A stretch of DNA of 64,000 nucleotides from an uncultured Nitrospiraceae bacterium (lineage in GTDB: Bacteria > Nitrospirota > Thermodesulfovibrionia > Thermodesulfovibrionales > UBA6898). The DNA is taken from NCBI GenBank assembly GCA_963811165.1, contig CAWEQH010000004.1, positions 160,001 to 224,000 on the forward strand. The letters are read 5' to 3'. The position numbers were made by a program, and so were the translations under genes. The notes beneath the pieces were generated by a model. The model was not told where the DNA came from, did not search any database, and worked only from the letters and a program-made list of their open reading frames with translations. Below, one piece after another: positions 30,299-50,311 of this stretch; the first letter of the stretch is position 1, and each line of letters starts with the position of its first letter.

Positions 30299-30415
30299 GA
30301 CTATAAAAAAGATTGGTCCGGCAACTAACCGGGATGAATATTTACAGAATACTGCTGTCCCCATTTAAGGTGAGCGGAGCACCTGATGATTGAAAGAATG
30401 AGAAGGGAAAAGGCG

Positions 30416-31636
30416 ATGGACAATGTGTTGGCCCTTATCCTTGCGGGCGGCAAGGGAGAAAGGCTGCACCCGCTTACGATCCACAGGGCGAAGCCTGCGG
30501 TGCCTTTCGGCGGCAAGTTCAGGATTATCGATTTTACCCTCAGCAACTGCATTAATTCCCATGTCCGAAGGATCGTAGTCATTACGCAGTATAAGTCCCT
30601 CTCCCTTGACAGGCACCTTGCGTTGGGATGGGAGCACCTTCTGAACCCGGAACTGGGCGAATATATATTCACTATCCCGCCCCAGCAGAGGATCGACGAA
30701 CGGTGGTATGAGGGCACCGCCGATGCGGTCTTCCAAAACATATATCTCATAGAAAAAGAAAACCCCCCGTATATCCTTATACTTTCGGGCGACCATATCT
30801 ATAAAATGAACTATGCCGAGATGTTCGACTTCCATCTCATGAGGGAAGCTACGGGGACTGTGGCCACAATAAAGGTACCCCAAAAAATAGCCTCTTCTTT
30901 GGGCATAGTTGAAGTGGACAGCGATTTCAGGATCATCGGGTTCAAGGAAAAGCCGGCGGACCCTGTTACCATACCCGGTGACCCCGAGCATTGTTTTGCC
31001 TCGATGGGGATATATCTTTTCAATAAGGAAGATATCATACACGAACTGAGGGCCGACTCCGGAAAATCGTCAGCCCATGATTTCGGCAAGAACATCCTGC
31101 CCGAAATGCTTCATACCGGAAAACTCTTCGCCTATGAGTTCAAGGACGAGAACAAAAAGGAGGCGAAATACTGGCGCGACGTCGGGACGATAGACTCGTA
31201 TTGGGAGGCGAATATGGACCTCGTCGCGGTCGATCCCCAGTTTAACCTTTATGACGGTGGATGGCCGCTCAGGACGAACCAGGGACAGCATCCGCCCGCT
31301 AAATTCGTCTTTGCCCAGGAATATAAAGGCGGCAGGTTAGGGATAGCACTGGATTCGATAGTCTGCGGAGGCTGCATCATAAGCGGCGGCAGGGTGCAAA
31401 ATTCAGTCCTCTCTCCCAGTGTCAGGATCAACAGCTATGCAGATGTCAGGGAGTCCATTCTGATGGAAAATGTGCAGATAGGGAGGAACTGTAAGATTAG
31501 ACGGGCCATTATCGACAAGGACGTGTATGTCCCGGCCGGTACCACGATAGGGTACGACCTCGAGGCCGACAGGGAGCGGTTTTTCGTAAGCGAAGGGGGA
31601 GTAGTCGTGATACCAAAAGGGGCTGAAATACGATGA
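30416..31636 (+). CDS. glgC: Glucose-1-phosphate adenylyltransferase
   Basis: LAGGKGERL, RAKPAVPFGG, WYEGTADAV, GDHIYKM, ASMGIY, DFGK and YWRDVGT motifs. Start could be 30386. Confidence 0.97.
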   Translation: MDNVLALILAGGKGERLHPLTIHRAKPAVPFGGKFRIIDFTLSNCINSHVRRIVVITQYKSLSLDRHLALGWEHLLNPELGEYIFTIPPQQRIDERWYEGTADAVFQNIYLIEKENPPYILILSGDHIYKMNYAEMFDFHLMREATGTVATIKVPQKIASSLGIVEVDSDFRIIGFKEKPADPVTIPGDPEHCFASMGIYLFNKEDIIHELRADSGKSSAHDFGKNILPEMLHTGKLFAYEFKDENKKEAKYWRDVGTIDSYWEANMDLVAVDPQFNLYDGGWPLRTNQGQHPPAKFVFAQEYKGGRLGIALDSIVCGGCIISGGRVQNSVLSPSVRINSYADVRESILMENVQIGRNCKIRRAIIDKDVYVPAGTTIGYDLEADRERFFVSEGGVVVIPKGAEIR

Positions 31637-32766
31637 GCCTTGCCGGCAGGCTTGAAGACCTCGCTATTTCGGACATCTTTCAGATACTCAGTGTGGGCAG
31701 AAAGACCGGCACTTTCATTGTAAGCGGGTCAAGAGGGGTCGCAATGATCGTCTTTAAAAACGGGATGGTCGTAAGGGCTGAGACGGACGACCTGGAAGGC
31801 TCTCTCGGGCAAAACCTGCTTGATGCCGGCCTCGTGAAAAATACGATACTGAATATGGCGTATGAGGTAAAAAAAAAGTTGCCCGGCAAATCCGTGGCCG
31901 AAGTCCTTTTTGAGTTGGGCTCGGTGACACAGGAGACGCTGGAAAAAGCTACCAGAAAGCGGATCGAAAAAGTCATTTACCGTCTGCTTATGTGGGAAGA
32001 CGGTGATTTCCAGTTTGAGCTCGACGACCTGGACCTTGAAGGTAAAACCGACCTTACCGACCTCGGCTGGGAACTATCGAGGGGGTTGAGTCCTGAATAC
32101 CTCTTGATGGAAGGCGCACGGGTGCAGGACGAGTCGACCCAGTTGTCCTTTGTAGAGACCGAAGAGATCTCGGGTGAGGAAGCGGGAGAGGGCGGATGGG
32201 AAGAAGACTGGGAGACCGCCCCTGCTGAGCGGAAGGACATATCTCAACTTAAGGCCCTGACGCAGGAACTCAGGTTCCCCAACTCGGCGTCCGAGATCAC
32301 CCTTCTTATCCTAAGGTTTGCCAGCGACATCTTCCACCGGGGGGTGCTCTTTATGGTCGGCAAGAACCAGATAGTGGGGCTTGGCCAGTTCGGACTCGAG
32401 ATAGACAGGGCGGACGAAAAGGTCCGTGAGACGGTCCTAGAGACAGAAAAAAGCCCTTTTCTGAAACAGATCGTTACCGAACAGATGCCCTATAAGGGGC
32501 CTCTTGAAAAAGATGAAGTGACCCGCAAACTGATGGCGGAACTCGGCGGGGTCTGGCCGTCTGAGGTCGCAGTATTTCCGATTGTGGCCGAAGGCCGGGC
32601 GGTCGCATTTCTCTACTGCGACAACTTCTCCACCGGGACGGCGTCTACGGAAACCGAGGGGCTTGAAATCTTCATAAGCCATGCCGGTCTGGCCCTGGAG
32701 AAATCCCTGCTTCAGAGGAGGATCCAGGAGATGGAGATGAAAAAAGGTCAGGAAGAAGCCGGGTGA
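31633..32766 (+). CDS. DUF4388-domain protein with a C-terminal GAF-like domain
   Basis: LAGRLEDLAISDIFQILSVGRKTG, WEDGDFQF and LLMEGAR motifs; acidic linker; FPIVAEGRAVAFLYCDN. Confidence 0.8.
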   Translation: MSLAGRLEDLAISDIFQILSVGRKTGTFIVSGSRGVAMIVFKNGMVVRAETDDLEGSLGQNLLDAGLVKNTILNMAYEVKKKLPGKSVAEVLFELGSVTQETLEKATRKRIEKVIYRLLMWEDGDFQFELDDLDLEGKTDLTDLGWELSRGLSPEYLLMEGARVQDESTQLSFVETEEISGEEAGEGGWEEDWETAPAERKDISQLKALTQELRFPNSASEITLLILRFASDIFHRGVLFMVGKNQIVGLGQFGLEIDRADEKVRETVLETEKSPFLKQIVTEQMPYKGPLEKDEVTRKLMAELGGVWPSEVAVFPIVAEGRAVAFLYCDNFSTGTASTETEGLEIFISHAGLALEKSLLQRRIQEMEMKKGQEEAG

Positions 32767-32908
32767 GCTTTTTTTTGCGCTATCTGATAAAATCTTACAA
32801 AATAATGCGCCCGAAACAGAAAGCGGAGAGGAAAGTGATGAGGGTCAAGGGAAAAGTTCCCGTAGTCCGGAACCGTAACTTTTATAACCTGCAAAGGGGA
32901 GAGGTTTT

Positions 32909-33277
32909 GTGAAGACCATTCTCATCGTTGAAGACTCCGCCACCACGCGGGCGCTTATCAGGGCCGTGATAGACGAGATCGGCGAGTTCGAGACGGTCGA
33001 GGCATCGTCGGGATTCGAGGCCCTTAAGATGCTGCCGCAACAGCAATACGACCTTATCATCACCGACATCAATATGCCTGACATCAACGGCCTGGAACTC
33101 ATCAGTTTTGTCCGGAACAACCCGAGGTTCACCCATCTGCCCATCGTGATCGTCAGCACCGAAAGGAGTGAGGAGGACAAAAGAAGAGGGATGGCACTCG
33201 GCGCCACGGCTTATGTGACGAAACCGTTTAAGTCGTTTGAACTGCAGGAAATCATAAAGAAGACCATGGGCCTATGA
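32909..33277 (+). CDS. cheY: CheY-like single-domain response regulator
   Basis: ILIVEDS, TDINMP, VST and TKPF motifs. Confidence 0.85.
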   Translation: MKTILIVEDSATTRALIRAVIDEIGEFETVEASSGFEALKMLPQQQYDLIITDINMPDINGLELISFVRNNPRFTHLPIVIVSTERSEEDKRRGMALGATAYVTKPFKSFELQEIIKKTMGL

Positions 33278-35235
33278 AAGCCTCGAAAAAGGAATTCATC
33301 GCAGAAGCGGAAGATCTCATCGAGGAATCCCAACGCCTGATCCTTGAAATCCAGGACACGTTTGCCACGGGCATCAACCCCGATACGCTAAACGCCCTGT
33401 TTAGGTCCATGCATACCCTTAAGGGCGTCTCCGGCCTTTTCGGCCTCCAGGGGATCACTAATGTAAGCCATTCCCTTGAGGCGCTGATGGATGACGTGAG
33501 GCTCGGCAAGATCGAGGTGGGAGCGTCGGTCGTCAATTTCCTCTTCAAGAACCTCGATATCCTGAAAGATGTTGTCGATAAGCTCAGCCAGACCGATGAA
33601 GAGTCCGATACATCCGGCTTCATCAAAGATATAGAGGCCTTCAGGGAATCCCTGAAAGGAAAATCCGTCCCTGCATCAGTGGGGGGAGTGATGGACGAAT
33701 CGATCCTGAAGGTGCTCTCGGAGTACGAGGAGCACAGACTCAAGGCCAACATAAAAGAGGGCAAGACGGTCTACCTCGCAAAGGCGGTCTTCCCGCTTGA
33801 GGTATTTGACACGTCGCTGGCCGAACTGACGAAGATAATCAAGACAAAAGGCGAACTCATATCGACCCTCCCGACCTCGTCGAACGTCCCGGACGGTTTT
33901 ATAGGGTTCAACCTGATGTTCGGCAGTACCGGCTCCCACGACGAGGTAAAGAAAGACGTGGCCTTCGATGTCGATGTCCTGGTCGGCCCCAAGAACGCGG
34001 AGCCCGGGCCCCAGCCCGACAGCCATCTTCTGAAGAGCACTTCGACGACCGTCAGGGTAGATATAGAAAAACTCGACAGGATTCTTAATACGGTAGGTGA
34101 ACTCAGCCTCGCGAAAGAGGCGGTAAAACGGATAGGAGCGGAACTCGTGGAACTCTACGGGCATTCGTCCCTCGTCTACGACATCCACAAGATATCCCAG
34201 ACGTTCGAGCGGAGGCTCGCCGAACTTCAGGACCAGGTCCTTGAGATCAGGATGGTGCCTATAGGACAGATTTTTGCGAGGCTCGCCCAGGTGGTAAGGC
34301 GGTATTCAAGAGAGATAGGCAAGCAGATAGAACTCGTCATGTACGGTGAGGAGACCGAACTGGACAAGTACCTTGCCGAAGAGATCATCGACCCCCTGAT
34401 GCACCTTGTCAGGAATTCCCTGGACCACGGCATCGAAAGCCCCGAGGAAAGAAAAATGAAGGGAAAAAGCGAGTCGGGGACGATCGTACTGAAGGCATAC
34501 CAAAAGGGCAACCATGTCGTCATCGAACTCAAGGACGACGGAGCGGGCATAGATCTTGTGAAGGTGCGGAAAAAGGCCGTGGAAAAGGGACTCGTCCGGG
34601 AGGAGACCGAACTGAGCGAAAGCGAGATCGTCGATTTTATTTTTACCCCGGGTTTTAGCACAAAGGACGTAGTGAGCGAGGTGTCGGGCAGGGGGGTCGG
34701 GATGGATGTGGTCAAGGAGAAACTCTCCGCCCTGGGCGGGTTCGCCGACGTCGAAACGAAAAAGGATGAGGGCACCACTTTTATGCTCACCCTGCCGATC
34801 ACCCTGGCGATAATCAAGGCCCTCTTAGTCAGGGTCGGCGACGAAAAATTCGCGGTGCCCCTGACGTCCATGTCTGAGACGCTCATCGTCGAGCACAAGG
34901 ACATTCAGACGATAGAATGGAAAGAGGTCTATTACCTCAGAGGAGATATGCTCCCGATGGTAAGGGTGAGCAAGTTTCTCAACCTCGCAGGCGACGACAA
35001 CAGCCGTTCTTTCGCGGTTGTCGTGGGGTTCGGAGAAAGGAAGGTCGGTCTCCTCGTAGACGAGCTTTTCGGCCAGCACGAGATCGTCATCAAATCGTTG
35101 AGCGACTATCTTAAGAAGTTAAGGGGCTTTGCCGGGGCCGCCGAGATAGGCAAGCATGAGGTGATTCTTGTCCTCGATATCGAATCGCTTATAGACGAAT
35201 CAATGATCAGGCAAAGAGGTGCGACGCATGTATGA
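33274..35235 (+). CDS. cheA: Chemotaxis histidine kinase
   Basis: Hpt (FRSMHTLKG), VRVDIEKLD, RMVPI, HLVRNSLDHGIE, DDGAG, SGRGVGMDVV and a C-terminal CheW domain. Confidence 0.96.
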   Translation: MKASKKEFIAEAEDLIEESQRLILEIQDTFATGINPDTLNALFRSMHTLKGVSGLFGLQGITNVSHSLEALMDDVRLGKIEVGASVVNFLFKNLDILKDVVDKLSQTDEESDTSGFIKDIEAFRESLKGKSVPASVGGVMDESILKVLSEYEEHRLKANIKEGKTVYLAKAVFPLEVFDTSLAELTKIIKTKGELISTLPTSSNVPDGFIGFNLMFGSTGSHDEVKKDVAFDVDVLVGPKNAEPGPQPDSHLLKSTSTTVRVDIEKLDRILNTVGELSLAKEAVKRIGAELVELYGHSSLVYDIHKISQTFERRLAELQDQVLEIRMVPIGQIFARLAQVVRRYSREIGKQIELVMYGEETELDKYLAEEIIDPLMHLVRNSLDHGIESPEERKMKGKSESGTIVLKAYQKGNHVVIELKDDGAGIDLVKVRKKAVEKGLVREETELSESEIVDFIFTPGFSTKDVVSEVSGRGVGMDVVKEKLSALGGFADVETKKDEGTTFMLTLPITLAIIKALLVRVGDEKFAVPLTSMSETLIVEHKDIQTIEWKEVYYLRGDMLPMVRVSKFLNLAGDDNSRSFAVVVGFGERKVGLLVDELFGQHEIVIKSLSDYLKKLRGFAGAAEIGKHEVILVLDIESLIDESMIRQRGATHV

Positions 35236-36046
35236 GGAATTTTACGGACTGACGGCGAGACCCTTCAGCAAGACGCCGGACCCGAAATTCCTTTTCCTCA
35301 GCAGAAACCATGAGGAGGCGCTTGCGAGACTGCAGTACGCGGTCGAAGAGAAAGACATGATCTTGCTTACCGGCGAGGTGGGCTGCGGGAAGACGACCCT
35401 CACAAGGGCGTTGATGGACGTGCTCGGCGACGACTACCGGGTCATCACGATCATAAATCCGGTCCTGAGCCCGGCCCAGTTCTTAAGGACGATCGCCAAG
35501 AGGATGGAGATCGATATTCCCTCCATTTACAAGGCGGACCTCCTCGACGCCATCTGCGAAAGGGTCTACCACGACCACGAGGCAGGTGTGACGCATGTGA
35601 TCATCATAGACGAGGCACAGCTCATACCGAGCAAGGACACGTTTGAGGAGATACGTCTTTTGACCAACTTTCAGCTCGACGATACAAACCTCCTGAGTAT
35701 TGTACTCGTCGGCCAGACCGATCTAAGGCGGAGGCTGAACCATAAAACGTATCTTCCCCTGAGGCAGAGGATAGGGCTTTTCTTCCATCTCGGCCCGCTT
35801 ACCGAAAGCGAGATAAAGGGATATGTGATGCACCGGCTGAAGATGTCGGGGAGGGAAGATATGTTGTTCACCGATGAAGCGCTGGCCATACTGTACAGGC
35901 TTTCGGGGGGTATACCGAGGGTGATAAACAGCATTGCCACGTCAGCGCTCCTTGACGGATTCGCTAAGGAGATGACCGTCATCAACGAGACACTCGTGGA
36001 AGACGCTGCAAGGGAACTGGGGTTAAATGGATATCGCGAAAATTAG
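35228..36046 (+). CDS. ExeA/GspA-like AAA ATPase (ATPase domain only)
   Basis: MYEEFYGL..PF..TPDP, Walker A GEVGCGKT, Walker B IIDEAQ, LRQRI and GIPRVIN motifs. Confidence 0.9.
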   Translation: MYEEFYGLTARPFSKTPDPKFLFLSRNHEEALARLQYAVEEKDMILLTGEVGCGKTTLTRALMDVLGDDYRVITIINPVLSPAQFLRTIAKRMEIDIPSIYKADLLDAICERVYHDHEAGVTHVIIIDEAQLIPSKDTFEEIRLLTNFQLDDTNLLSIVLVGQTDLRRRLNHKTYLPLRQRIGLFFHLGPLTESEIKGYVMHRLKMSGREDMLFTDEALAILYRLSGGIPRVINSIATSALLDGFAKEMTVINETLVEDAARELGLNGYREN

Positions 36047-36749
36047 GAAGAAGGCCAGGGAGAAGGAAGAAAGCGGGAAGAACGTTGAGGGCGGTACGCC
36101 TAAAGAGGTAAGGCCGGAGACAGGCGGGAAACACGTTGCCCACGAAGGGCCTCTCCCGGAAGTTCACGGAGGGCCGGATGATGAGGCATCCCTTCCACCC
36201 GGCTCCGGGGAGAAAAGAGACGAAGTCCCCCTTCCTTCCCGGGGCGGCGAAGGGACAGGAGGCCCTTCGGAAAAGAAAGAGGCGCCGGAGGTGGAAGAAG
36301 CTGCGCTTGAGCTTCTTACGTTTAGCCTCTCCGGCGAGGAATTTGCATTCCGGGTTTCCGAGGTTGAGGAGATCATCAGGTTCCAGAGGATCACGGGGGT
36401 CCCGACAATGCCGGATTATGTCCGGGGGATAACCTCGTTACGGGGGAAGGTTATCCCTGTCATAAACCTCAGGACCAGACTTGCGCTGAAAGGGCCGGTC
36501 GAGCCGCAGCAGGAAAGAGGAGAAAGGGAAGACAGGAGGATACTTATCCTCTCGGGCCCCAAGGGGATGATAGGGGCGACGATCGACAGGGTGCTGGGAG
36601 TGGTAAGGTTTCCGGCCGCCACCATACTCGATCCGCCGGCTCATCTTACGGAAAATGAACTTAAGTATATAGAAGGCGTGGTAATACTCGAAAAGCGCTT
36701 TATATCAATAATCAGGTCTGACGACGCTCTGGATATAGAGTTCGCCTAA
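36027..36749 (+). CDS. cheW: CheW with a long low-complexity N-terminal extension
   Basis: LLTFSLSGEEFAF, VEEII, ITGVP and SLRGKVIPVINLR motifs after ~90 aa rich in E/G/P. Confidence 0.9.
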   Translation: MDIAKIRKKAREKEESGKNVEGGTPKEVRPETGGKHVAHEGPLPEVHGGPDDEASLPPGSGEKRDEVPLPSRGGEGTGGPSEKKEAPEVEEAALELLTFSLSGEEFAFRVSEVEEIIRFQRITGVPTMPDYVRGITSLRGKVIPVINLRTRLALKGPVEPQQERGEREDRRILILSGPKGMIGATIDRVLGVVRFPAATILDPPAHLTENELKYIEGVVILEKRFISIIRSDDALDIEFA

Positions 36750-36758
36750 GGAGGGCGA

Positions 36759-39611
36759 ATGAGGGAAAAACTTGAACTGAAAATACTGGCGCTCGTGGCA
36801 GGTATGCTGCTGCTGGGCATAATTATAGCCGGGGTCATGGTACTGACCATCGAAAAAAAGAGTCTCTACAACCTGACCGAAACGGCTTCCGAGGCCACGG
36901 CGAACGTCATCGCCAAGGACGTAGAGCGGACGATGCTCGAGGGGAGGGCCGACCTCACAAAGGCGCTTGTGGAGGAACTGAAGGGCGCCAGCGGCGCGGA
37001 AGATATTTCCCTGGTGAATTACCGCGGCGCTAGGGCGTTTGATAAAGCGGCGCCTGAACTCGAGGCTGCTTTGATGAAGAAAATGGCGCGGACAAAGGCG
37101 CCGGTGTTCGTCAGGGAAGTGAAGAGTCTGATCTATTATAAGCCGCTTGAAAACGGTGAAAAATGCAGGACGTGCCACGCAAACGACCCCTCCATACTCG
37201 GCGCCGTCAAGACCTCGATATCAATAGCCAAAGAATATGCCGACGCATCCAGGATGATCATCATAGTGATTCTCGCCACGGTCCTCGCCTGCTTCGTCTT
37301 CAGCATCGTGCTATGGGCGATGATACGAAGGATGGTTATCCTGCCCCTGAAGTCCCTCGGAGATGCGGCGGCAAAACTCTCCGAAGGGGACATGTCCTTT
37401 AAAGTCGAGGTGAAGAGCACCGACGAGATAGGCAGGTTCAGTAAGGCGATACGGGAATCGCTGGTTTCGATATCCGGCATCCTGCAGAGGATCCAGGATG
37501 TGTCCAAGAAGGTGAAGCGCGTGGCTGCAGACGTCGAAAGTGAATCGAGAAAAGTGGTCGACGGGACGATGCTTGAGACCGAGGCGGTCAACAACATTTC
37601 GGCCTCGATAGAAGAACTAAACGCGGTCATATCCGAAATAGCCGGCGGGACTGACGCGCTTGCTGTCTCGGCCGAGGAGACATCCGCATCAATGGTGCAG
37701 ATGGCGGCCAATATTGACGAGATTACCAGCAACACGCAGGACATGTCCATGGCCGTGGAAGCGACATCCGCGTCGATAGAACAGCTGTCGGCCACCATCA
37801 AGGAGGTCGCATCAAACACCGGTGAACTGGCCGGGGCGGCGGAAGAGACGCAGTCTGCGATAGTGGAGATCGCGACCTCGGTTAAAGAGGTCGAGCAGAG
37901 GGCGAAGGAGTCTGCGATGCTCTCCGATAAAGTCAGGAACGAGGCCGTCACGTTCGGGATGGTCTCTGTCGAAAAAACGATCAAGGGAATGCAGAACATA
38001 AAGGCGTCGGTCGAGAAGACGGCGGATTATATAAAGAAGCTCGGGGGTCGTTCCGAGGAAATAGGCAAGATACTGAACGTGATAGATGAGATCACCGACC
38101 AGACTACGATGCTTGCCCTGAACGCGGCGATCCTGGCGGCGCAGGCAGGGGAACAAGGGAAGGGCTTCTCGGTTGTCGCCGACGAGATCAAGGAGCTCGC
38201 CGAGAGGACGTCGATGTCTACCCAGGAAATCGCCGCCCTCATACAGGCTGTCCAGCAGGAGGTGGGCGATGCGGCAGCCGCGATGGAAGAAGGGCTTAAG
38301 TCAGTCGAAACGGGATTCAAGGTGACCAACGAGGCCGTCGACGCACTAAGGAAAATTGTGGAAAGTTCCAGGAAATCTTACGAAATGGCTGCGGCGATAG
38401 AGCAGTCGACTACTGAGCAGGCAAAGGCGGCGCTCCTTGTCTCTGGGGCGATGGAGAAGGTCCTGGATATGGTGGGACAGATCGCAAAGGCCACGACCGA
38501 GCAAAACAGAGGGATCCAGCTCATTATGAATGCGACTGAGAAGATCAGGGACGTTTCCAGCTATGTAAAGACGGCAACGAACGAGCAGTCCTCGACCAGC
38601 AAACAGATTTCCATGGCGGTCGAACAGGTCTCCGAAAAGAGCCAGCAGATATCCCGGGCCATAAACGAACAGAAGATAGGTTCAAACCAGATATGGAACT
38701 CGGTTGAAAAGATAAAGGACCTGCCCAGACAAAACAGGGACCGCGCCTTCCACCTCGACAGAATGGTGAAAGAACTCCTTAGGGACGCCGAACTGGCGGC
38801 CATCGAGATGGAGAGGTTCACCTTCGCCGAGGACACTTCGGCCGGCCTGCTTAAGATGGGCATCGTACCACTCGAATCACCGGCCGTAATGTACAAGAAA
38901 TTCGCCCCCCTGGCTGAATACCTCAGTAAGAGGCTGAAGAGGAAGGTCGAACTGAGAGTAGCGGTGGATTTCCAGGGCGCGGTCAACGACATAGGACAGG
39001 GCATTACCCAGTTTTGTTTTATGACGCCGTCGACCTATGTCGAGGCGCACGACAGATATGCTGTCCGGGTGTTGGTGAAGGCCCTGCGGGAGGGCAAACC
39101 TTTTCAGCATTCCGTGATCGTCACGAGAAACGACAGCCCGATCAATAGTCTGGAAGATATAAAGGGCCGCTCCTTCGCGTTCGGAGATCTTCATTCCACT
39201 TCGAGCCACATAGTTCCGAGGGCGATGCTGTTGTCGGCGGGTGTCGACGTGTCGGGGCTCCTGTACCATAATTATCTGGGACACCACGATGATGTTGCGA
39301 AGGCGGTGCTTGCCGGAGATTTCGATGCAGGCGGGATAATGGAGTCGACCGCGTATGCGTTTCAGGACAAGGGGCTGAAATTCGTCAAGATTTCCGACGA
39401 TATTCCGGAATTCAATATCTGCGCTTCCCGTGACCTCGACCCTCAGCTCTCCGATGAATTAAAAGATGCGCTTGTGAGTTTAAACGACGGTACCGCCGAA
39501 GGGAGCGAGATACTGAAGTCCATCAGCAAGAGTTACACGGGCTTCCTTGAGGCTTCCGACGAGGATTACCACGGCGTAAGGACTATGATGACGAAGATAG
39601 GATTGGTCTGA
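36759..39611 (+). CDS. Methyl-accepting chemotaxis protein with a periplasmic c-heme (CxxCH) sensor and a C-terminal PhnD-like binding domain
   Basis: TM1, CRTCH, TM2, HAMP, long MA domain ([30 protein letters not shown]), then LKMGIVP...[12 protein letters not shown]...[16 protein letters not shown]. Confidence 0.9.
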
Positions 39612-39701: not shown

Positions 39702-41723
39702 ATGATATTGAATAAATCCATAACGACAAAATTCCTGGCCGCACTATTTGTGATCCTCCTGGTGGGACAGTCGCTCGGGGCGCTCATTATGATTTTATAT
39801 TCACGCTCGGCGCTTATCGATTCTCTTGAGAACAGGATGAAGAGAGAGTCAGCTATCGCCGCGGGAGTCACGGCGGGGCCTCTTCTTAGTTACGACTACG
39901 TACTTATCGACTCTTGTCTGGAAGAAATTGCTAAAGACGAGGACATTACCGCCATACGCGTACTGGACGCCAGCGGGAAAGTCGCCCGGGAACGCATAAA
40001 AAAGCTCGACAACGATTCTTCTGCCGCCAGCTTCTTTTATAAAAAGGACTTCTCTTTCAGGGTCCCTGTTATGGCAGCGGGCGCCAAGATCGGAGAGGTG
40101 GTCATCGACTTTACCACGAAATCGATAAACAGGCACCTTTCCGAAAATGTGCTGACGATTTCTCTCTATCAGGTTATCATGCTGTTTGCCGTGGGCGTGA
40201 TCATGATGTCCCTTTTCAACAGGAACATCAAGAGACCTGTATCCGAGGTCAACAAGACGATCGAGAGGATCACGATGGGCGAGCTGTCCACCGAGGTCCC
40301 CGACCTTGGGGAAAACGAGATAGGCAGTATCGCCAAGGGCATCTCCTTTCTTGCCGAGAGACTTTCTCTCACCGTTTCGAGGCTCAATTCCACTGCGGTG
40401 AACGTAACGATGGCGATCAAACAGGTAGACCTGACTTATAAGAATGCGATAGCGGGGACAACAAGGCAGACGACGGCTGTAAAGGATGTCGTTAAGTCCA
40501 TCCATAACGCCAATAAAGTGGAGTCCGAAATCAGCGACAGCGCGGAAAAGCTTGCGAGTCTGTCCACGGAAAACGTGTCGTCGTTAATCGAACTGAAGGC
40601 CACCGCGGAGGAGATAGCCTCGAGCAACCAGCGACTTTTCAAGGCGACCGAGGATTCTTACTCCGTCGTAGCGGAGATGACCCATACCGCAAAGGCGATT
40701 TCGAAGAATTCCGGAGAGGCCCTCTCGGCCGTCGAGGATACCTCCGCCTCTATCGAAGAGATTGGGGCCTCCATCAGGGAGGTCGAGGACCACGCCAAGG
40801 AATCGTCCAAGATGGCGGAGCAGGTAAAGGAGATTACCTCGGACATCGGTATGCTTTCGATCGTAAATGCCGTTGAAGGAATGGAAAAGATCTCTGAAGA
40901 GGTGAAGAAATCCTCCGAGATCGTGCAAAGGCTGGGAACCAGGTCGTCCGATATCGAGAAGGTGCTCTCAGTGATAAAGGACGTAACGGAACAGACGAAC
41001 CTCCTCAGCTTAAACGCGGCGATCCTCGCGGCGCAGGCCGGCGAGTACGGGAAGGGTTTTTCAGTCGTGGCTGACGAGATAAGGGCTCTGTCGGAGAGGA
41101 CCGCGAGTTCGACGAGGGAGATAGGGGGCATCGTCAAGACGATCCAAGAGGACATAAGGGACGCGGTTTTTTCGATCGATTCGGCAAATGCGAAGGTGGA
41201 GGAGGGCAACGGACTTGTGCTCAAGGTAGGAGACGCCCTCAGGGAGATCCTGACCGCATCCGAACACTCCACCGAGATGACCAAGGCGATCGAAAGAGCG
41301 ACGGAGGAACAGTCGCTCGGCCTGCGGCAGGTCACCGCGGCAATCGAGGACATCAGGAAGATGATGCACAGTGTGGCGAAGGCCACGAGCGAGCAGGACA
41401 ACGCCCTCAGTTATCTTCTCGAAGGAGTGGGTGAGGTCAAGGAGGTCGCCGACCTAAGCAAACGCGGGACCGAGGAGCAGGCGATCGGCACGAGGGGCAT
41501 ATCCAAGAATCTCGAACTGGCCAACGAAAGGATCACCAGGATAAACGAGGCGGTCCTGAACCATAAGAAGTTTAATGACTCGATCATCCAGGCCATGGAC
41601 CAGATCGGCAACATCGGGGTATCCACGGTAAAAGACATGGAAGAGGTTTCACTTTCCCTGAGCGCGCTCTTTGAGGAGATCAATGTTTTGAAAAAGGAGA
41701 TGGAGGTTTTTAAGGTAAAGTAG
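39702..41723 (+). CDS. Methyl-accepting chemotaxis protein (long signalling domain)
   Basis: Two TMs, a ~120-aa periplasmic domain, HAMP and [31 protein letters not shown]. Confidence 0.93.
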   Translation: MILNKSITTKFLAALFVILLVGQSLGALIMILYSRSALIDSLENRMKRESAIAAGVTAGPLLSYDYVLIDSCLEEIAKDEDITAIRVLDASGKVARERIKKLDNDSSAASFFYKKDFSFRVPVMAAGAKIGEVVIDFTTKSINRHLSENVLTISLYQVIMLFAVGVIMMSLFNRNIKRPVSEVNKTIERITMGELSTEVPDLGENEIGSIAKGISFLAERLSLTVSRLNSTAVNVTMAIKQVDLTYKNAIAGTTRQTTAVKDVVKSIHNANKVESEISDSAEKLASLSTENVSSLIELKATAEEIASSNQRLFKATEDSYSVVAEMTHTAKAISKNSGEALSAVEDTSASIEEIGASIREVEDHAKESSKMAEQVKEITSDIGMLSIVNAVEGMEKISEEVKKSSEIVQRLGTRSSDIEKVLSVIKDVTEQTNLLSLNAAILAAQAGEYGKGFSVVADEIRALSERTASSTREIGGIVKTIQEDIRDAVFSIDSANAKVEEGNGLVLKVGDALREILTASEHSTEMTKAIERATEEQSLGLRQVTAAIEDIRKMMHSVAKATSEQDNALSYLLEGVGEVKEVADLSKRGTEEQAIGTRGISKNLELANERITRINEAVLNHKKFNDSIIQAMDQIGNIGVSTVKDMEEVSLSLSALFEEINVLKKEMEVFKVK

Positions 41724-42212
41724 ATGCGTAAATTTGCGGTATTTACGATAGCGGATGAAATGTTCGGCGTCGAGATCGAACGGGTGGTCGAGATCATCAG
41801 GGTGCAGAAGATATTTTCTATTCCCGGGCTGCCTGATTTCCTGTCGGGGGTCATGAGCGTAAGGGGGATGGTGGTCCCTCTTGTGGACCTCAGAAGGCGC
41901 TTTGGAAAGGAGCCTTCGGGAAAGAAGGAGCGGATAGTCATAGTCCGTTTCGGACAGGAAAAGATAGGGCTGCTCGTCGACGGGATAAAGGAAATCATGT
42001 CGCTGGCCGCCGAAGAAATGACAATGCCGCCCTCCCTCTTCAAGGGTTTCAGGACGGAGTATCTGACCGGCCTCGGAAAAAAGGACGGGGTGATCATCAT
42101 CTTGCTCAATATCGACAACCTCCTTACTTCGGAAGAGAAGATCATGCTGAAGGAATCGATGGGACTGATAGAGGAGAGCGGTGCAGGAATTAATAAAACG
42201 GATCAGCGATAG
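41724..42212 (+). CDS. cheW: CheW
   Basis: FAVFTIADEMFGV, VVEII, SVRGMVVPLVDLR and GLLVD motifs. Confidence 0.93.
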   Translation: MRKFAVFTIADEMFGVEIERVVEIIRVQKIFSIPGLPDFLSGVMSVRGMVVPLVDLRRRFGKEPSGKKERIVIVRFGQEKIGLLVDGIKEIMSLAAEEMTMPPSLFKGFRTEYLTGLGKKDGVIIILLNIDNLLTSEEKIMLKESMGLIEESGAGINKTDQR

Positions 42213-44154
42213 CAACGTAGAGACAAGAAGAGAGGCCGTCGAGAGCATAAAGGGGAGGAAGGACAACACATATATCCCCCTATTGCTCAAGGCTATGGAA
42301 GACCCAAGCTGGCGCGTCAGGAAGACGGCGGTCGACATTCTCTTCGATGACTATCCGGTCGAAAAATACATTCCGGGACTGATTGGACTTCTTTCCATCG
42401 AAGACAATGCAGGGGCGAGAAACTCCGCGATTGAGGCGCTTATCAGACTCGGCAAAAAGGCCACGGTCTATCTTGTCGATGCCTTCAAGACTCCCAACAG
42501 GGACGTAAGAAAATTCATTATCGACGTCCTCGGCGAGCAAAGAGACGCCAGGTCGCTGCCCCTGATGCTTGAGGCGATCAGGGACGAGGATGAAAACGTC
42601 AGTGCGACGGCGGTGGAGCACCTGGGAAAGGTCGGAGAGGTCTCGGTGGTGGACGCGCTTATTGAGATACTCGACGGCGGAGACCTATGGGTGGCCTACC
42701 CCGCCGCAGACGCACTGGGGAGGATCGGCAATAAGAAGGCGGTCCCGCATCTGCTTGGTGCGCTCAAGAAAAAACCTCTGAGGGAACCGGTGATGAAGGC
42801 CCTTGGACGACTTTCAGAGGCCTCGACGATCAAGCATATCGTCCCGCTCCTCGATGACCCTTCGAGGAATATCCAGGAGCAGGCGCTGAAGACGATCGAA
42901 AGGTTTTATCATAACGGTGTCGATGCCGATTATATAATTGGAGAAATGAGGAGGATCCTTGGTCCCAGGGTGATGGAACTCCTGATAAGCCACGCCTGGT
43001 CGACGAAACGGGAGGTGAGAATCTCGGCGATTCTGTTGCTCGGCCTGATGAAGGACGAGGCGGCGTACGGTCCCCTTCTGGACATATCGCAGGAAGAGGA
43101 GTTTACTGAAGACGTGAAAAACGCCCTCGTCTACATAGGAAGAGACAAGCCGGAATCGCTGTTGAAGCTCTTTGATACGGACAACCCTCACCAGATGCGC
43201 TTTATCTGCGAGGTGACTGAAAGGGTCGTTTCACCTGTCTACTATGATATCCTCGAAGGGCTTCTTACGAATGCGGACGGCCATGTAAGGGCCACGGCGG
43301 CGATCAGCATTTCGAAGCTCGCTGACCGGCGGTCGGTCGAAAAGCTTAAAAGGCTGCTGGTCGATCCTTATGAGGACGTACAGGAGGCAGCGGTGGAGGC
43401 GCTTTCGAACCTTAAGGACGCGCTGGACGCGGGGCAGCTGGTGCCTTCATTAGGACATGCCGATGCCGTGTTAAGGAGGAATACGGCGCTACTTATGGGG
43501 AAGATAAAGGCGTCTGCTTCGGTGAAGAACCTCGGGTTTGCGCTGAAAGACGAAAACGTAAGGGTGAGAAAGGCGGTCGTGGGGGCGCTTTCTTCCATAG
43601 GCACTGAGGAGGCCGTGAGGTATCTCACTTACGCCCTTACCGACGAAAGCGCTGACATCAGGACCTCTGCTGCACTGAGTCTCGGCGCCATCGGAGGCAA
43701 AGACGTTCTTGAGTCTCTCACGATCCTGAGCAAGGACACCGACAATTCCGTCAGGGTCGCTGCAGCGAAGTCGCTTGGCATGCTGAAAGACAAAAGCGCG
43801 GTGGGGACTCTGATCGGCCTGTTGGCCGACAGGAACGGTTTCGTGGTGACGACCGCGATTGAGTCTTTGAGCGGGCTGAGAGGAGATGAGGCGAGGGACG
43901 CAATTATCGGGATGCTCTCGTCTGCCGACGACGAGGTCAGGAGGACGGCGATCACCGCGCTTGCACCTTTCGAAAATATGGAAAGCAGTCTTATCCCTTT
44001 TCTTAAAGACCCGGACTGGGCGACCAGGATCGCCGCGGTCAGGACCCTTGGCAGAAATGCGGGAGGGTATGTCAGGAAAGAACTCGAAAGGCTCCTTGAC
44101 ACTGAAGAAGATCCGACCGTAATTAAGGCTGTCGAGGAGATCCTTCTTGTTTGA
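42181..44154 (+). CDS. HEAT/PBS-lyase repeat protein
   Basis: Many D..VR.AA..ALG repeats (DPSWRVRK, DENVRVRK, DPDWATR). Confidence 0.9.
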   Translation: MQELIKRISDSNVETRREAVESIKGRKDNTYIPLLLKAMEDPSWRVRKTAVDILFDDYPVEKYIPGLIGLLSIEDNAGARNSAIEALIRLGKKATVYLVDAFKTPNRDVRKFIIDVLGEQRDARSLPLMLEAIRDEDENVSATAVEHLGKVGEVSVVDALIEILDGGDLWVAYPAADALGRIGNKKAVPHLLGALKKKPLREPVMKALGRLSEASTIKHIVPLLDDPSRNIQEQALKTIERFYHNGVDADYIIGEMRRILGPRVMELLISHAWSTKREVRISAILLLGLMKDEAAYGPLLDISQEEEFTEDVKNALVYIGRDKPESLLKLFDTDNPHQMRFICEVTERVVSPVYYDILEGLLTNADGHVRATAAISISKLADRRSVEKLKRLLVDPYEDVQEAAVEALSNLKDALDAGQLVPSLGHADAVLRRNTALLMGKIKASASVKNLGFALKDENVRVRKAVVGALSSIGTEEAVRYLTYALTDESADIRTSAALSLGAIGGKDVLESLTILSKDTDNSVRVAAAKSLGMLKDKSAVGTLIGLLADRNGFVVTTAIESLSGLRGDEARDAIIGMLSSADDEVRRTAITALAPFENMESSLIPFLKDPDWATRIAAVRTLGRNAGGYVRKELERLLDTEEDPTVIKAVEEILLV

Positions 44155-45016
44155 AAAAGAAGACGTTATCCCGCTTTCCGATGATGTATTCCGGCTCATA
44201 AGGGACATTATTAAGGACTACTGCGGATTATATTTCGACGACGGCTCCAAATACCTTCTTGAGAGGAGGCTTGCAAGAAGGATACGCAGCCTGCATCTTG
44301 ACGACTTCAGGGACTACTACCGCTTTCTCAGGTACGACAAGAACTCCGAAGAGGAGCTCGCGGCGATCATCGACCTGCTGACGGTGAATGAAACCTATTT
44401 TTTCAGGGAGCAAAACCAGCTGAAGGCCTTCAGCGAGGAGATCCTGGAAGAATTAAGAGAAAAGAACCGCGACAGAAGGTCTTTGAGGATATGGTCCGCA
44501 GGGTGTTCGACGGGCGAGGAGCCCTATACGATTGCGATGCTTATACAGGAAACGGGGAACTTCGCAGGCTGGGACATTGAAATATACGGAAGCGACATCA
44601 ACCAGAGGGTGCTGCAGGCGGCCAGGAAAGGGATATACAGAAGGAACTCATTCAGAACGGCTGAGACACGGTATATCGACAGGTATTTTGCCCAGGAGGA
44701 CGATTCCTACAGGATAGCAGACGGCGTCAAACGATATGTAAACTTCAGTTACCTGAACCTCCTTGATTCTTTCAGGACGAGGTTCCTCGGCAAAATGGAT
44801 GTGATTTTATGCAGAAATGTATTAATATATTTTGACGGTCCTTCACGGAAGAAGGTAATAGAAAATTTCTATGACAGACTGGTAGACGGCGGGTATCTCC
44901 TGCTTGGTCACGCCGAGTCGCTGATAAATATATCGACCGCCTTTACCTTGAAGCATTTCAAAAATGATATGGTGTATCAGAAGCCCCCGGGCAAGCACCC
45001 GGGCTTCAGACACTGA
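44147..45016 (+). CDS. cheR: Chemotaxis methyltransferase
   Basis: TVNETYFFRE, IWSAGCSTGEEPY, CRNVLIYF and GHAESL motifs. Confidence 0.96.
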   Translation: MFEKEDVIPLSDDVFRLIRDIIKDYCGLYFDDGSKYLLERRLARRIRSLHLDDFRDYYRFLRYDKNSEEELAAIIDLLTVNETYFFREQNQLKAFSEEILEELREKNRDRRSLRIWSAGCSTGEEPYTIAMLIQETGNFAGWDIEIYGSDINQRVLQAARKGIYRRNSFRTAETRYIDRYFAQEDDSYRIADGVKRYVNFSYLNLLDSFRTRFLGKMDVILCRNVLIYFDGPSRKKVIENFYDRLVDGGYLLLGHAESLINISTAFTLKHFKNDMVYQKPPGKHPGFRH

Positions 45017-45041
45017 GATGCAAAACTACCCGACAGGAGTT

Positions 45042-46112
45042 ATGCAGGTGTCCACAAAAATACTTATCGTCGACGATTCTGCGTATACGAGGCAGATGAT
45101 TAAAAAGATCGTCGAGCAGGAGGCGGGGCTCGAGGTTGTGGGCATCGCTTCCGACGGCATCGACGCCATGGCCAAGACGCTCAGGTTGAAGCCCGACATC
45201 ATTACCCTCGATTTCGAGATGCCGGAGATGGACGGCTTCAGTTTTTTGCGCTGGCTGATGCGTGAAAGACCCACGCCAGTGATCATGGTGAGCTCCCACA
45301 ATGACTCGAAAACCGTGTTCAAGGCGCTCGAATTCGGGGCGGTCGATTTTATCGCAAAGCCGACAAAGCGCGCCTCGCTTGAGCTGCAGAGAATCGAGAA
45401 GGACCTCATAAGAAAGATCAGGGGGATAAAAGATATCAGGCTGGACATCCTCAGCAATAACCTGAAATTGCTCGACAAAGAAGAGCGTGTCGAGCCTGCC
45501 GGCGAAGTCGGCAAGCACTCCGTGCAGGTGGTCGCCGTGGGGTCTTCGACGGGCGGCCCCGCGGCGCTTCAGATCGTCCTGTCGAGACTGCCCGCGGATT
45601 TTCCCGCGGCGATCATCATAAGCCAGCACATGCCGCGGGGTTTTACCGGCCAGCTTTCCGAAAGGCTCAACAGGTTGTCTCAGTTGAGGATAAAGGAGGC
45701 CGAGGACCTTGATCCGATCACGCCCGGCCAGGCGTTGATCTGTCCCGGCGGGTACCATCTCGGGGTGAGGCGCCGTGGATCAAAGGAAGTGATCGTATTG
45801 AAAGAGGGGAAAATCAGCGACAAATATATACCGTCCGTGGACCATATGATGAAGTCGGCGGCCGATGTGTTCGGGGCAAACACTATGGGAGTTGTACTGA
45901 CCGGCATGGGCAATGACGGGAAGCAGGGCGTGGTGGAAATTAAAGCCAAAGGTGGGTATACTATAGCAGAGTCGGAAGCAAGTGCGGTGGTTTTCGGCAT
46001 GCCGGCAGAGGCGATAAAGACGGGAGCGGTCGAAAGTGTGCTCCCGATATCCGAGGTTGCGTTTGAAATATTGAGAGTTGTAAGTTACTCGGCCAAGAGG
46101 GAGAAGGATTAG
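45042..46112 (+). CDS. cheB: Chemotaxis methylesterase/response regulator
   Basis: REC domain plus SSTGGP, QHMP, PSVD, LTGMGNDG and VFGMP motifs. CAGGAG SD before ATG 45042. Confidence 0.96.
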   Translation: MQVSTKILIVDDSAYTRQMIKKIVEQEAGLEVVGIASDGIDAMAKTLRLKPDIITLDFEMPEMDGFSFLRWLMRERPTPVIMVSSHNDSKTVFKALEFGAVDFIAKPTKRASLELQRIEKDLIRKIRGIKDIRLDILSNNLKLLDKEERVEPAGEVGKHSVQVVAVGSSTGGPAALQIVLSRLPADFPAAIIISQHMPRGFTGQLSERLNRLSQLRIKEAEDLDPITPGQALICPGGYHLGVRRRGSKEVIVLKEGKISDKYIPSVDHMMKSAADVFGANTMGVVLTGMGNDGKQGVVEIKAKGGYTIAESEASAVVFGMPAEAIKTGAVESVLPISEVAFEILRVVSYSAKREKD

Positions 46113-46933
46113 TGGAAAAAGAGACCGGTTTTGTCGGCAAGGCGGACGAATTCCTTCAGATGTTCAAGAAAGGGGAGGAATTCACGAAAGAACTCCTTAA
46201 GGAAAACGAGAAGCTGAGATACAAGATCGCCCAGCTCGAAGAGACCCTGCAGAGGTCAGGAGACGAGGCGAGGACCAGGCTATATGAAGACAGGATCGGC
46301 CTGCTGGAAGAGGAGCTGAAATCCCTCAAAGAAAGGTTCAGAAAGGTGGAGGAGGAGAACAAGGACTTCGCCTCCAAGTATCTCGAGGTGGAAGAGGAAA
46401 ACAACAACCTCGCCAATCTCTACGTGGCGAGCTACCAGTTGCATTCCACCCTCGATTTTTCCGAGGTCTTAAGGATTGTCCTTGAGATCATCATCAATCT
46501 CATCGGCGCCGAGAAATTCGCGGTACTGCTGATAGACGACAAGACGAACGAGCTTATACCGGTAAGCGCCGAGGGCATGGCCGTCTCAGAGGCCCCCAAG
46601 ATAAAGATCGGCCAGGGTACAATAGGGACCGTTGCCAAGGAAGGGGAAAGTTTCTTTTCAGATAACCTGATCGGCGCCGCGGAGTTTGATCCTCATGAGC
46701 CCATCGTATGCATCCCGCTTAAGATAAAGGAGCATGTCATAGGCGTACTGTCGATCTACAAGCTTCTTACGCAGAAAGCCGGTTTTACGAACGTAGACTA
46801 TGAGCTTTTCAACCTGTTGGCCGGTCATGCGGCGACTGCGATCTTTTCATCCCGGATGTATACGCAATCTGAGAGAAAACTTACTACTATACAGAGTTTC
46901 CTGGATCTCCTCAAAGAGAAGCCGAGGAAATAG
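46112..46933 (+). CDS. Coiled-coil plus GAF domain protein
   Basis: E/K/L heptad N-terminus, NLANLYVASYQLHSTL, GTIGTVA and CIPLKI. No output domain. Confidence 0.8.
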   Translation: MEKETGFVGKADEFLQMFKKGEEFTKELLKENEKLRYKIAQLEETLQRSGDEARTRLYEDRIGLLEEELKSLKERFRKVEEENKDFASKYLEVEEENNNLANLYVASYQLHSTLDFSEVLRIVLEIIINLIGAEKFAVLLIDDKTNELIPVSAEGMAVSEAPKIKIGQGTIGTVAKEGESFFSDNLIGAAEFDPHEPIVCIPLKIKEHVIGVLSIYKLLTQKAGFTNVDYELFNLLAGHAATAIFSSRMYTQSERKLTTIQSFLDLLKEKPRK

Positions 46934-46945
46934 GGGGATTGTGAT

Positions 46946-47314
46946 ATGCCGAATATTCTCGTTGTTGAAGATTCGCCGACGATGAGGCAGCTTATCAGTT
47001 TTGCGATAAAGCGGATCCCAAGTTGTCATGTTATTGAGGCCACCGATGGTGTGGATGCGCTCAAAAAACTTTCGTCGGAGAAGATCGATCTTATCCTTGC
47101 CGACATCAATATGCCGGTAATGGACGGTCTCAAACTTGTGAGCCTTGTTCGGGGGAACGCGGCGTATAAAGATATTCCTGTAATAATAGTCACGACCGAA
47201 GGCGCAGAAGAAGACAGAAAGAGGGCGCTCTCAATCGGTGCCAACGCCTACCTGCCAAAACCGATCCAGACGCAGGAACTGCTCAAGCTCGTAAATACCT
47301 ACCTGGCCAGATGA
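46946..47314 (+). CDS. cheY: CheY-like single-domain response regulator
   Basis: ILVVEDS, ADINMP, VTT and PKP motifs. Confidence 0.85.
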   Translation: MPNILVVEDSPTMRQLISFAIKRIPSCHVIEATDGVDALKKLSSEKIDLILADINMPVMDGLKLVSLVRGNAAYKDIPVIIVTTEGAEEDRKRALSIGANAYLPKPIQTQELLKLVNTYLAR

Positions 47315-47383: not shown

Positions 47384-48784
47384 TTATTCCGTAGGCGGTT
47401 CTTTTTTCGCAGGGCTGCCCGGGTTCAATTTTTCCCACCGGTACCAGAAAGTCTTATAGCTCAGGCCGAGGAGCTTGGCCGCCTTGGCAACGACTCCGTT
47501 GGCCTTTGTCATCGCTTTTCTCAGGAGTCTTTCTTCGAGTTCCTCCAGATTGATCCCGTCTTCCGGAAGATCCGGATCGAAGGCCTCGGCCGGCTGGAGT
47601 GTCCTGAGTTCCCTCTTTATTTCTTTCAACCCGATGGTGTCGGTGTCGCACATGAGGACCGCCCTCTCGATGACCGATTCGAGCTGGCGAATATTTCCGG
47701 GCCAGTTGTATCCCTCAAGGGCGTTGAGCGTTGCTTCTTCGATGCCCTTTATTCTCTTGCCGAATTCGCGGTTGTATTTACCGATGAAAAAGTCCGCGAG
47801 TTCGGAGATGTCGCTCTTCCTTTGGCGCAGAGGGGGAAGCTCTATCGATACGACCCTAAGCCTGTAGTAAAGGTCTTCCCTGAAATTCCCCTTCGCCATT
47901 TCCTTTTCCAGGTCCTTGTTCGTGGCGGTGATGATCCTCACATCGATTTTTATCGCTTCTTTTCCGCCAAGCCTCCTGATCTCCTTGTCCTGAAGGACCC
48001 TGAGGAGTTTTGACTGCATCATCTGGGGCATATCCCCGATCTCGTCGAGAAAGAGGGTGCCGCCGTTTGTAGCCTCGAAGAGCCCTATCCTTCGCGCTAC
48101 CGCACCGGTAAAGGCGCCAGGCTCATAGCCGAAGAGTTCACTTTCGAAAAGGCTCTCGGGGATGGACGCGCAGTTGAGGGCGGTGAATGGTTTCGACCGT
48201 CTCGGACTGTTGTAATGGATGGCCTTCGCTACCAGCTCTTTTCCGGTACCGCTCTCGCCTCTTATCAGTACGGTGGCGGAACTGCCCGAAATCTTCTTCA
48301 TGATCTCCATCGCATCCTTCATCATGCCGGACTCGCCGACTATGCCCTCCATCCTGAACCTGTCATAAAGCTCTTTATGGAGCTGAAGATTCTCCTTCAG
48401 AAGTTCCGCGTGCCCCGCCGCCCTGGCTACGGTCATGACGCAGGGAGTCTTTGTTCAGAGGTTTTGTCAGGTAATCGAAGGCCCCTTTTTTCATTGCTTC
48501 GACCGCCGAGGAAATCGTGCCGTGGGCGGTCATGATAATCATCGTCGGTACGACCCGTCTCTCGTCGGCAGCTCCATTTTCGAGACCGTCTCTATCAGCT
48601 CTATCCCGTCCATGCCCTCCATCTTGAGGTCCGTAAGTATCACGTCGGGATAGTACTTTGCCATGACCTTAAGGGCCTCTTCTCCGGAAGAGGCGGTAAG
48701 GGCCTCATATCCTTCGTCCTCGAGAATCGTCTTCAGTATGTCTCTCTGAAGGGGTTCGTCATCTACAACGAGCACTACCGGCAT
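47384..48784 (-). pseudogene. sigma54-dependent response regulator (NtrC/AtoC family) interrupted by two compensating frameshifts
   Basis: The REC N-part (48784-~48555), a shifted middle ([38 protein letters not shown]) and the AAA+/HTH ORF ([14 protein letters not shown]) join into one full-length protein. Confidence 0.85.
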
Positions 48785-48786
48785 AC

Positions 48787-50244: not shown

Positions 50245-50280
50245 AGTGATGTATTGTATATTAAACACTCGCGGTGAGGT

Positions 50281-50311
50281 CAAATAAAACCCCCGCTTGA
50301 GGCGGGGTTAT
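50281..50311 (-). terminator. Intrinsic terminator after the lipoprotein gene
   Basis: AACCCCGC/GCGGGGTT stem with a T-rich tail on the minus strand. Confidence 0.65.

Follow-up and report, generated by a model that had tools for sequence, protein, structure and literature searches.

The 64,000-nucleotide stretch analysed here, from an uncultured Nitrospiraceae bacterium (assembly GCA_963811165.1, contig CAWEQH010000004.1, positions 160,001 to 224,000; hereafter the window), encodes at 36759..39611 (+) a chemoreceptor of 950 amino acids (aa) in which a methyl-accepting chemotaxis protein continues at its C-terminus into a domain of the PtxB/PhnD solute-binding fold. This fusion is a real and conserved receptor design, catalogued yet uncharacterised. 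On the reading we favour, to which we give about an even chance, the sequence would describe a 64-heptad receptor belonging to a chemosensory cluster that is likely non-flagellar; its periplasmic haem-c domain is predicted to sense redox state or gas, and its tail likely binds a small internal oxyanion. Sulfite is our leading guess for the ligand of the tail, a tentative one drawn from co-occurrence and molecular shape.

An earlier note, made from the letters alone, had described one open reading frame (ORF) with two transmembrane (TM) segments around a periplasmic domain carrying CRTCH, followed by HAMP and a long methyl-accepting hairpin, and both Pfam and hydropathy agree with this description. 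The ORF (P0001) has zero internal stops, and membrane-grade hydrophobicity is confined to TM1 (residues 9-27, 36783..36839; hydropathy 2.81) and TM2 (residues 167-185, 37257..37313; 3.21), all features of the gene lying on the + strand. TM2 is followed by HAMP (approximately residues 189-241, 37323..37481; PF00672 matches residues 189-226, and the end is placed from the model length) and by the hairpin (37482..38825), whose MCPsignal match scores 151.8 bits against a cut-off of 34.6. With the end of HAMP set at residue 241, the arms around the tip residue E465 count 223 and 224 residues, that is 64 heptads in two symmetric 32-heptad arms. Three sites in the hairpin match the methylation consensus, and cheR and cheB are found in the same cluster. 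The receptor is a methyl-accepting chemotaxis protein of the 64-heptad class, named 40+24H (PMC3543383). By this count, the last residue of the C-terminal arm is F689, which is on a level with the end of HAMP. About seven polar residues (linker 690-696, 38826..38846; no signal peptide by hydropathy) join it to the tail (residues 697-950, 38847..39608), the predicted local distance difference test score (pLDDT) falling below 50 at residues 687-694. PF12974 covers residues 700-937 over the full model with 215.8 bits, so that the Pfam order is MCPsignal followed by PF12974; past residue 200 the 19-residue Kyte-Doolittle mean does not exceed 1.29, with a maximum of 0.95 at the junction. The complete PhnD-type fold without a hydrophobic segment at the junction, as first proposed, is thus borne out. 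Two membrane segments and standard receptor topology place the tail in the cytoplasm, and the level of the C-terminal arm supports a position at the membrane-proximal end of the hairpin, where the earlier note had also put it.

An independent 34-kb contig spans the entire fusion gene with 64 substitutions and 0 gaps, and two further contigs from other runs cross the junction without gaps; this check, which was made on assembled contigs and not on raw reads, revealed no indel. All of the 120 homologues listed of 515, which by their source names belong to Nitrospirota, carry both MCPsignal and PF12974, and 112 of these are full-length. Linker length spreads over 4 residues across 115 homologues, and no segment of the junction zone reaches a hydropathy of 1.6 in the 117 of the 120 listed homologues in which the tip motif was found. 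A query with junction plus tail (E 1e-20) matched 102 of 201 genomes of the phylum; among the genomes listed, the match covers arm and tail without stops in 53 and the tail only in the remaining ones.

The periplasmic domain (residues 50-155, 36906..37223) matches PF21563 with 31.8 bits (cut-off 27) and PDB 3B47 in phmmer (E 3.8e-5). It includes CRTCH (residues 136-140, 37164..37178; C136, C139 and H140) as the single CxxCH between the two TM helices, as in GSU0582, and this motif is kept in 112/112 full-length homologues. M59, which we take to be the distal haem ligand, is invariant in 31/31 aligned sequences, and cytochrome c assembly gave three matches in the genome. The domain resembles the one-CxxCH periplasmic domains of Geobacter sulfurreducens GSU0582 and GSU0935 (PDB 3B47, 3B42; PF21563), receptors that are not known to have a PhnD-like tail. 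In these sensors the spin state shifts on reduction, and NO is bound, as is CO in the reduced form (PMC3460858). By analogy, haem would be attached at the CxxCH motif and would respond to redox state, NO or CO.

Judged from domain composition, the tail is the constant part of the design while the outer sensor swaps or vanishes. In 21 fusion proteins from 20 loci the outer part is a haem sensor in nine, sCache_3_2 in two, a weak 4HB match in one and an unassigned periplasmic domain in six, and three have no periplasmic domain. The host genome itself contains an orphan paralogue (G000:C8:568359-570890 (-); 843 aa) that lacks a periplasmic domain, its two TM segments being adjacent, and whose tail has a variant pocket (SATGH, SHD). 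A profile search revealed a second, shorter fusion class, by name from Acidiferrobacterales, Rhodocyclaceae, other Gammaproteobacteria, Bacillota and Nitrospirota. Among 80 short-class proteins, N-terminal membrane segments are present in 53, leaving no space for a periplasmic domain, and absent from 27, of which 21 are consistent at 541-573 aa and six fragment-like; in both short-class loci checked, the start codon is preceded by an in-frame stop 9-13 codons away. In the 21 soluble receptors the tail is the sole recognisable sensor candidate. The notion that the tail acts as a second input thus gains support, strong yet indirect because sensorless receptors such as DifA exist (PMC2577667). 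In a quick tree of 100 domains (23 long-class, 17 short-class and the first 60 of 98 stand-alone domains) the short class was supported at 97% for 16 of its 17 members and the long class at 80%, one Bacillota-type row stood apart, and a single origin of the fusion was not established.

The predicted structure of the tail (pLDDT 89.7) has PtxB as its best structural match, in line with the full-length profile match to the type II binding-protein fold of PF12974. The tail shares with PtxB, PhnD, ArrX and AioX the fold and a Ser-Thr-Ser plus His oxyanion site. In contrast to these proteins, it is not exported, no permease partner was found, and the Tyr-Asp cap is replaced by Phe-Leu. Phosphite in Te_PtxB is contacted by Y55, Y100, S130, T131, S132 and H160, and the cap residue Y208 is bonded to D22 (PMC5700983). 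In an alignment to 5JVB, S130, T131, S132 and H160 are kept as S813, T814, S815 and H843, whereas Y55, Y100, Y208 and D22 correspond to F738, Q783, F885 and L705. Among 43 tails below 65% identity, S813 is kept in 42, E862 in 41, H843 in 40 and F885 in 36, the domain mean being 0.59. Of 186 long-class tails 95% have Phe at the cap position, as do 98% of 92 tails of the short class and 16% of 125 stand-alone relatives, counts that include near-copies, with a few fusion fragments in the stand-alone set and 49 fragments excluded. The site thus looks maintained, yet different from that of PtxB or PhnD. Membership of PhnD (TIGR03431) was rejected on score (134 vs 261 bits), the missing signal segment and the lack of any PhnE-type permease over the cut-off in the genome, and membership of PtxB on the pocket residues.

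The nearest stand-alone relatives have signal-like N-termini; five of them (P0145, P0149, P0154, P0155 and P0160) look secreted and carry two tandem PF12974 domains. Two stand-alone PF12974 proteins of the host (G000:C10:50293-51192 (+) and C6:13190-14095 (-)) also start with signal-like N-termini and are not beside transporters; by sequence, the neighbours are a second che cluster for one and a kinase plus a sigma-54-type regulator for the other.

On the reading we favour, the haem sensor would report the outside redox or gas state, as in GSU0582 and GSU0935, while closure of the two-lobed tail on its ligand would alter the packing of the last hairpin helix beside HAMP and bias CheA. The ligand, and this is the weakest step, might be an anion with three oxygens and a small apex. 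The H-SO3 form of bisulfite resembles phosphite in shape, and sulfite is a cytoplasmic intermediate common to the reductive and the oxidative Dsr/Apr pathways. One speculative possibility is a dedicated role of the Phe-capped tail in sensing sulfite in the cytoplasm, with sulfate reducers and sulfur oxidisers of several phyla having joined this tail to varied chemoreceptors. On flagellar receptors, taxis would then be driven by flux through the Dsr/Apr pathway; here, a haem redox receptor would weigh the outside electron-acceptor state against inside sulfite.

The carriers of the fusion are mostly dissimilatory sulfur metabolisers, with exceptions and with shared ancestry. Within the phylum, dsrA was found by profile search in 101 of 201 genomes, and 50 of the 53 carriers have it, including the frameshifted copy of the host. 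The host genome contains aprA and, by tblastn, a dsr operon with frameshifts (G000:C8:231886-241620; three in dsrA and one each in dsrB, dsrK and a dsrJ-like gene), which reflect either assembly error or pseudogenisation. A host without Dsr was initially indicated by the profile search, which missed dsrA at E 1e-60; this was rejected on finding the frameshifted operon, and the gene is counted as present. A pattern search across several phyla yielded 22 short-class carriers, of which 17 have dsrA, four more have aprA and one has neither; dsrA is present in all ten carriers from Proteobacteria and in the single one from Acidobacteriota. The background rate, measured for dsrA only, was 61/251 in Rhodocyclaceae, 91/301 in a gammaproteobacterial class sample and 25/201 in an Acidobacteriota sample, each of which includes one or two carriers. 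Flagellin is encoded by 21 of the 22 cross-phylum carriers. Short-class neighbourhoods gave no consistent clue to the ligand among the 36 proteins scanned; in the one short-class carrier lacking dsr and apr genes, a SulP-family anion transporter is located just downstream of the short-class fusion (L078:5071-6660).

Several observations weigh against a sulfite-binding tail. Within the phylum, 52 of 102 genomes with dsrA do not have the fusion. Of the 80 genomes that contain the cluster marker, 42/69 with dsrA carry the fusion vs 3/11 without dsrA (p = 0.051 before kinship is considered); co-occurrence inside the phylum could be explained by ancestry. The 22 cross-phylum carriers are related and represent perhaps six or seven lineages rather than 22 events, and two of them appear identical to genomes of the phylum sample. 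The exceptions to the sulfur link are G015, G067, G081 and G215: no dsrA, aprA or dsrB over the cut-off was found in G015, G067 and G081 (100, 91 and 94% complete), and one Bacteriovoracaceae carrier likewise showed no dsrA, dsrB or aprA. Only one of 61 dsrA-bearing Rhodocyclaceae sampled contains the fusion, and the existence of a large Bacillota class of identical architecture means that the design itself is not tied to sulfur. As for the pocket, two oxygen ligands of PtxB are gone in the long class (Y55 to F/M, Y100 to Q/H/T), the short class retaining both tyrosines, and pockets are degenerate in four genomes of genus g39 (L059, L087, L089 and L050), two of them with dsrA. These four tails, in which the cap Phe is gone throughout and the His in three, form a natural loss-of-function series. 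The idea that the pocket decays once Dsr is lost was discarded, because among the carriers without dsr two are degenerate while one has an intact pocket, and degenerate pockets also occur in two relatives with dsrA.

Some of these observations would suit a tail that, in the long class, binds no ligand and serves for docking or as a structural element, such as a tether of CheR/CheB or the HEAT-repeat protein, or one that is decaying. The Y208F exchange in PtxB changes the affinity for phosphite from 0.17 to 295 µM, a roughly 1,700-fold loss, and abolishes binding of phosphate and methylphosphonate (PMC5700983), and the long class lacks the equivalents of Y55, Y100 and D22 in addition; the losses of cap Phe and His in g39 point the same way, as does the absence of the fusion from 35 of the 80 cluster-marker genomes. 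We nevertheless regard a ligand-free tail as unlikely, since the conservation of S813, H843 and F885 in the 43 divergent tails clearly exceeds the domain mean, and since the soluble relatives have no other candidate sensor and occur outside such clusters (5/22 short-class neighbourhoods and other gene samples scanned). Rather unlikely, too, is a tail that senses phosphorus status by binding phosphate, phosphite or a phosphorylated metabolite. An OmpR-type regulator adjoins two short-class loci, and in the one of the two that was scanned its best match is PhoB, below the cut-off; however, none of the 36 short-class neighbours scanned was named as a phn, ptx or pst transporter gene, and no PhnE-type permease is found in the host genome. 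Of the ligands first suggested, an internal oxyanion or a phospho-metabolite, the former is therefore kept and the latter weakened, the Tyr cap and its Asp partner being replaced and the Tyr-to-Phe exchange abolishing phosphate and methylphosphonate binding in PtxB. That the fusion is an assembly or gene-calling artefact, with a binding protein in reality separate and exported, is hardly conceivable: other genes (dsrA, dsrB, dsrK) do contain assembly frameshifts and the nearest stand-alone relatives do look exported, but the fusion gene has no frameshift, and a split gene is ruled out by the homologues, the 53 genomes and the bridging contigs described above.

The earlier note knew of no characterised receptor with this architecture. 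No functional study was found in the literature searched, in which key reviews are incompletely covered; the architecture as such, however, is already contained in Data Set S4 of Sanchis-Lopez et al. 2021 (PMC8547431). The word 'phosphonate' is absent from the main text of that paper, whose tables count 74 Phosphonate-bd ligand-binding domains, and among the rows listed in Data Set S4 this domain follows MCPsignal in 22 of 23 Phosphonate-bd receptors (PMC8547431). At least three Nitrospirae rows of cluster 1183 (11 sequences) show the exact architecture and the same coordinates (TM1 10-29, TM2 166-188, HAMP, MCPsignal, Phosphonate-bd 700-937); the architecture is listed there, with ligand and topology undiscussed in the available portions. 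At least 19 rows belong to cluster 237 (60 sequences), for example Acetobacterium woodii Awo_c15430, which represents a separate, shorter class (PMC8547431). We found one Bacillota-type tail and three near-copies with Asp at the cap, which probably belong to cluster 237, and a metagenome scan for further Bacillota-type tails yielded none. In the ESM Atlas, Bacillota fusions form clusters of 494 and of 191 members, and SBP_bac_3, NMT1 and DctP occur in comparable fusions. DcrH (haemerythrin), TlpD/McpA (CZB) and Azospirillum Tlp1 (PilZ) likewise have an input, either their second or their only one, where the hairpin ends C-terminally; unlike the tail, these are unrelated sensor folds, none of them a solute-binding-protein clamshell. 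CZB receptors are also described in PMC13370339. Solute-binding-protein folds are regarded as inputs for signals from outside the cytoplasm (PMC8050422), whereas hundreds of receptors seem to carry such a fold inside the cell (clusters of 494, 191 and 74 members). The question can be addressed directly in vitro, because a soluble form of 543 aa exists and the tail, at 254 aa, has a clear pocket. If the ligand were sulfite, the tail would be a molecular sensor through which sulfur-cycling bacteria link behaviour to metabolism, and it might serve as a scaffold for biosensors; otherwise, it would still represent a family of internal inputs with pockets that vary from lineage to lineage.

In the window, the fusion gene is embedded in a chemosensory cluster on the + strand, preceded by genes for DUF4388, CheY, CheA, an AAA ATPase and CheW (31633..36749) and followed by a tail-less second 64-heptad receptor, CheW, a HEAT-repeat protein, CheR, CheB, GAF and CheY (39702..47314), as assigned from ORFs and Pfam. 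Among 20 fetched loci, the fusion is located among such genes in 15 and is an orphan in five. Flagellin, FliM and FlhA were not found in the host genome, which is 95% complete, and three genes exceed the cut-off for PilT. The host thus seems to be non-flagellated, and the output of the cluster is likely non-flagellar. In its adjacent genes for CheA, ATPase and CheW, and by gene adjacency only, the cluster resembles the beta-group/Esn cluster GSU2220-2222 of Geobacter, a system that we presume to be of the F10 type. GSU2220-2222 (CheW, ATPase, CheA) is required for electrode colonisation (PMC5585712). A non-flagellar output has been proposed for the beta group, whose clusters are said to contain no mcp genes (PMC2577667), in contrast to the two mcp genes here.

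Promoter and terminator scans gave results near chance (16 vs 11.2 and 28 vs 19.3, respectively). Upstream, glgC (window 30386-31636 (+)) overlaps the first cluster gene by 4 bases, as it does at the same-family locus L036, and might be co-transcribed with it; at the other end, genes for a sigma-54 activator and a HAMP histidine kinase (window 47384-50283 (-)) converge on the cluster. Three genomes of one family have additional genes inserted between the receptors of the cluster (L042:7651-11670, L051:3328-7295 and L043:10234-14262); these encode a multihaem cytochrome, an ABC_sub_bind protein and an outer-membrane beta-barrel that is MtrB/PioB-like in two of the genomes, which suggests that the chemosensory cluster may be tied to extracellular electron transfer.
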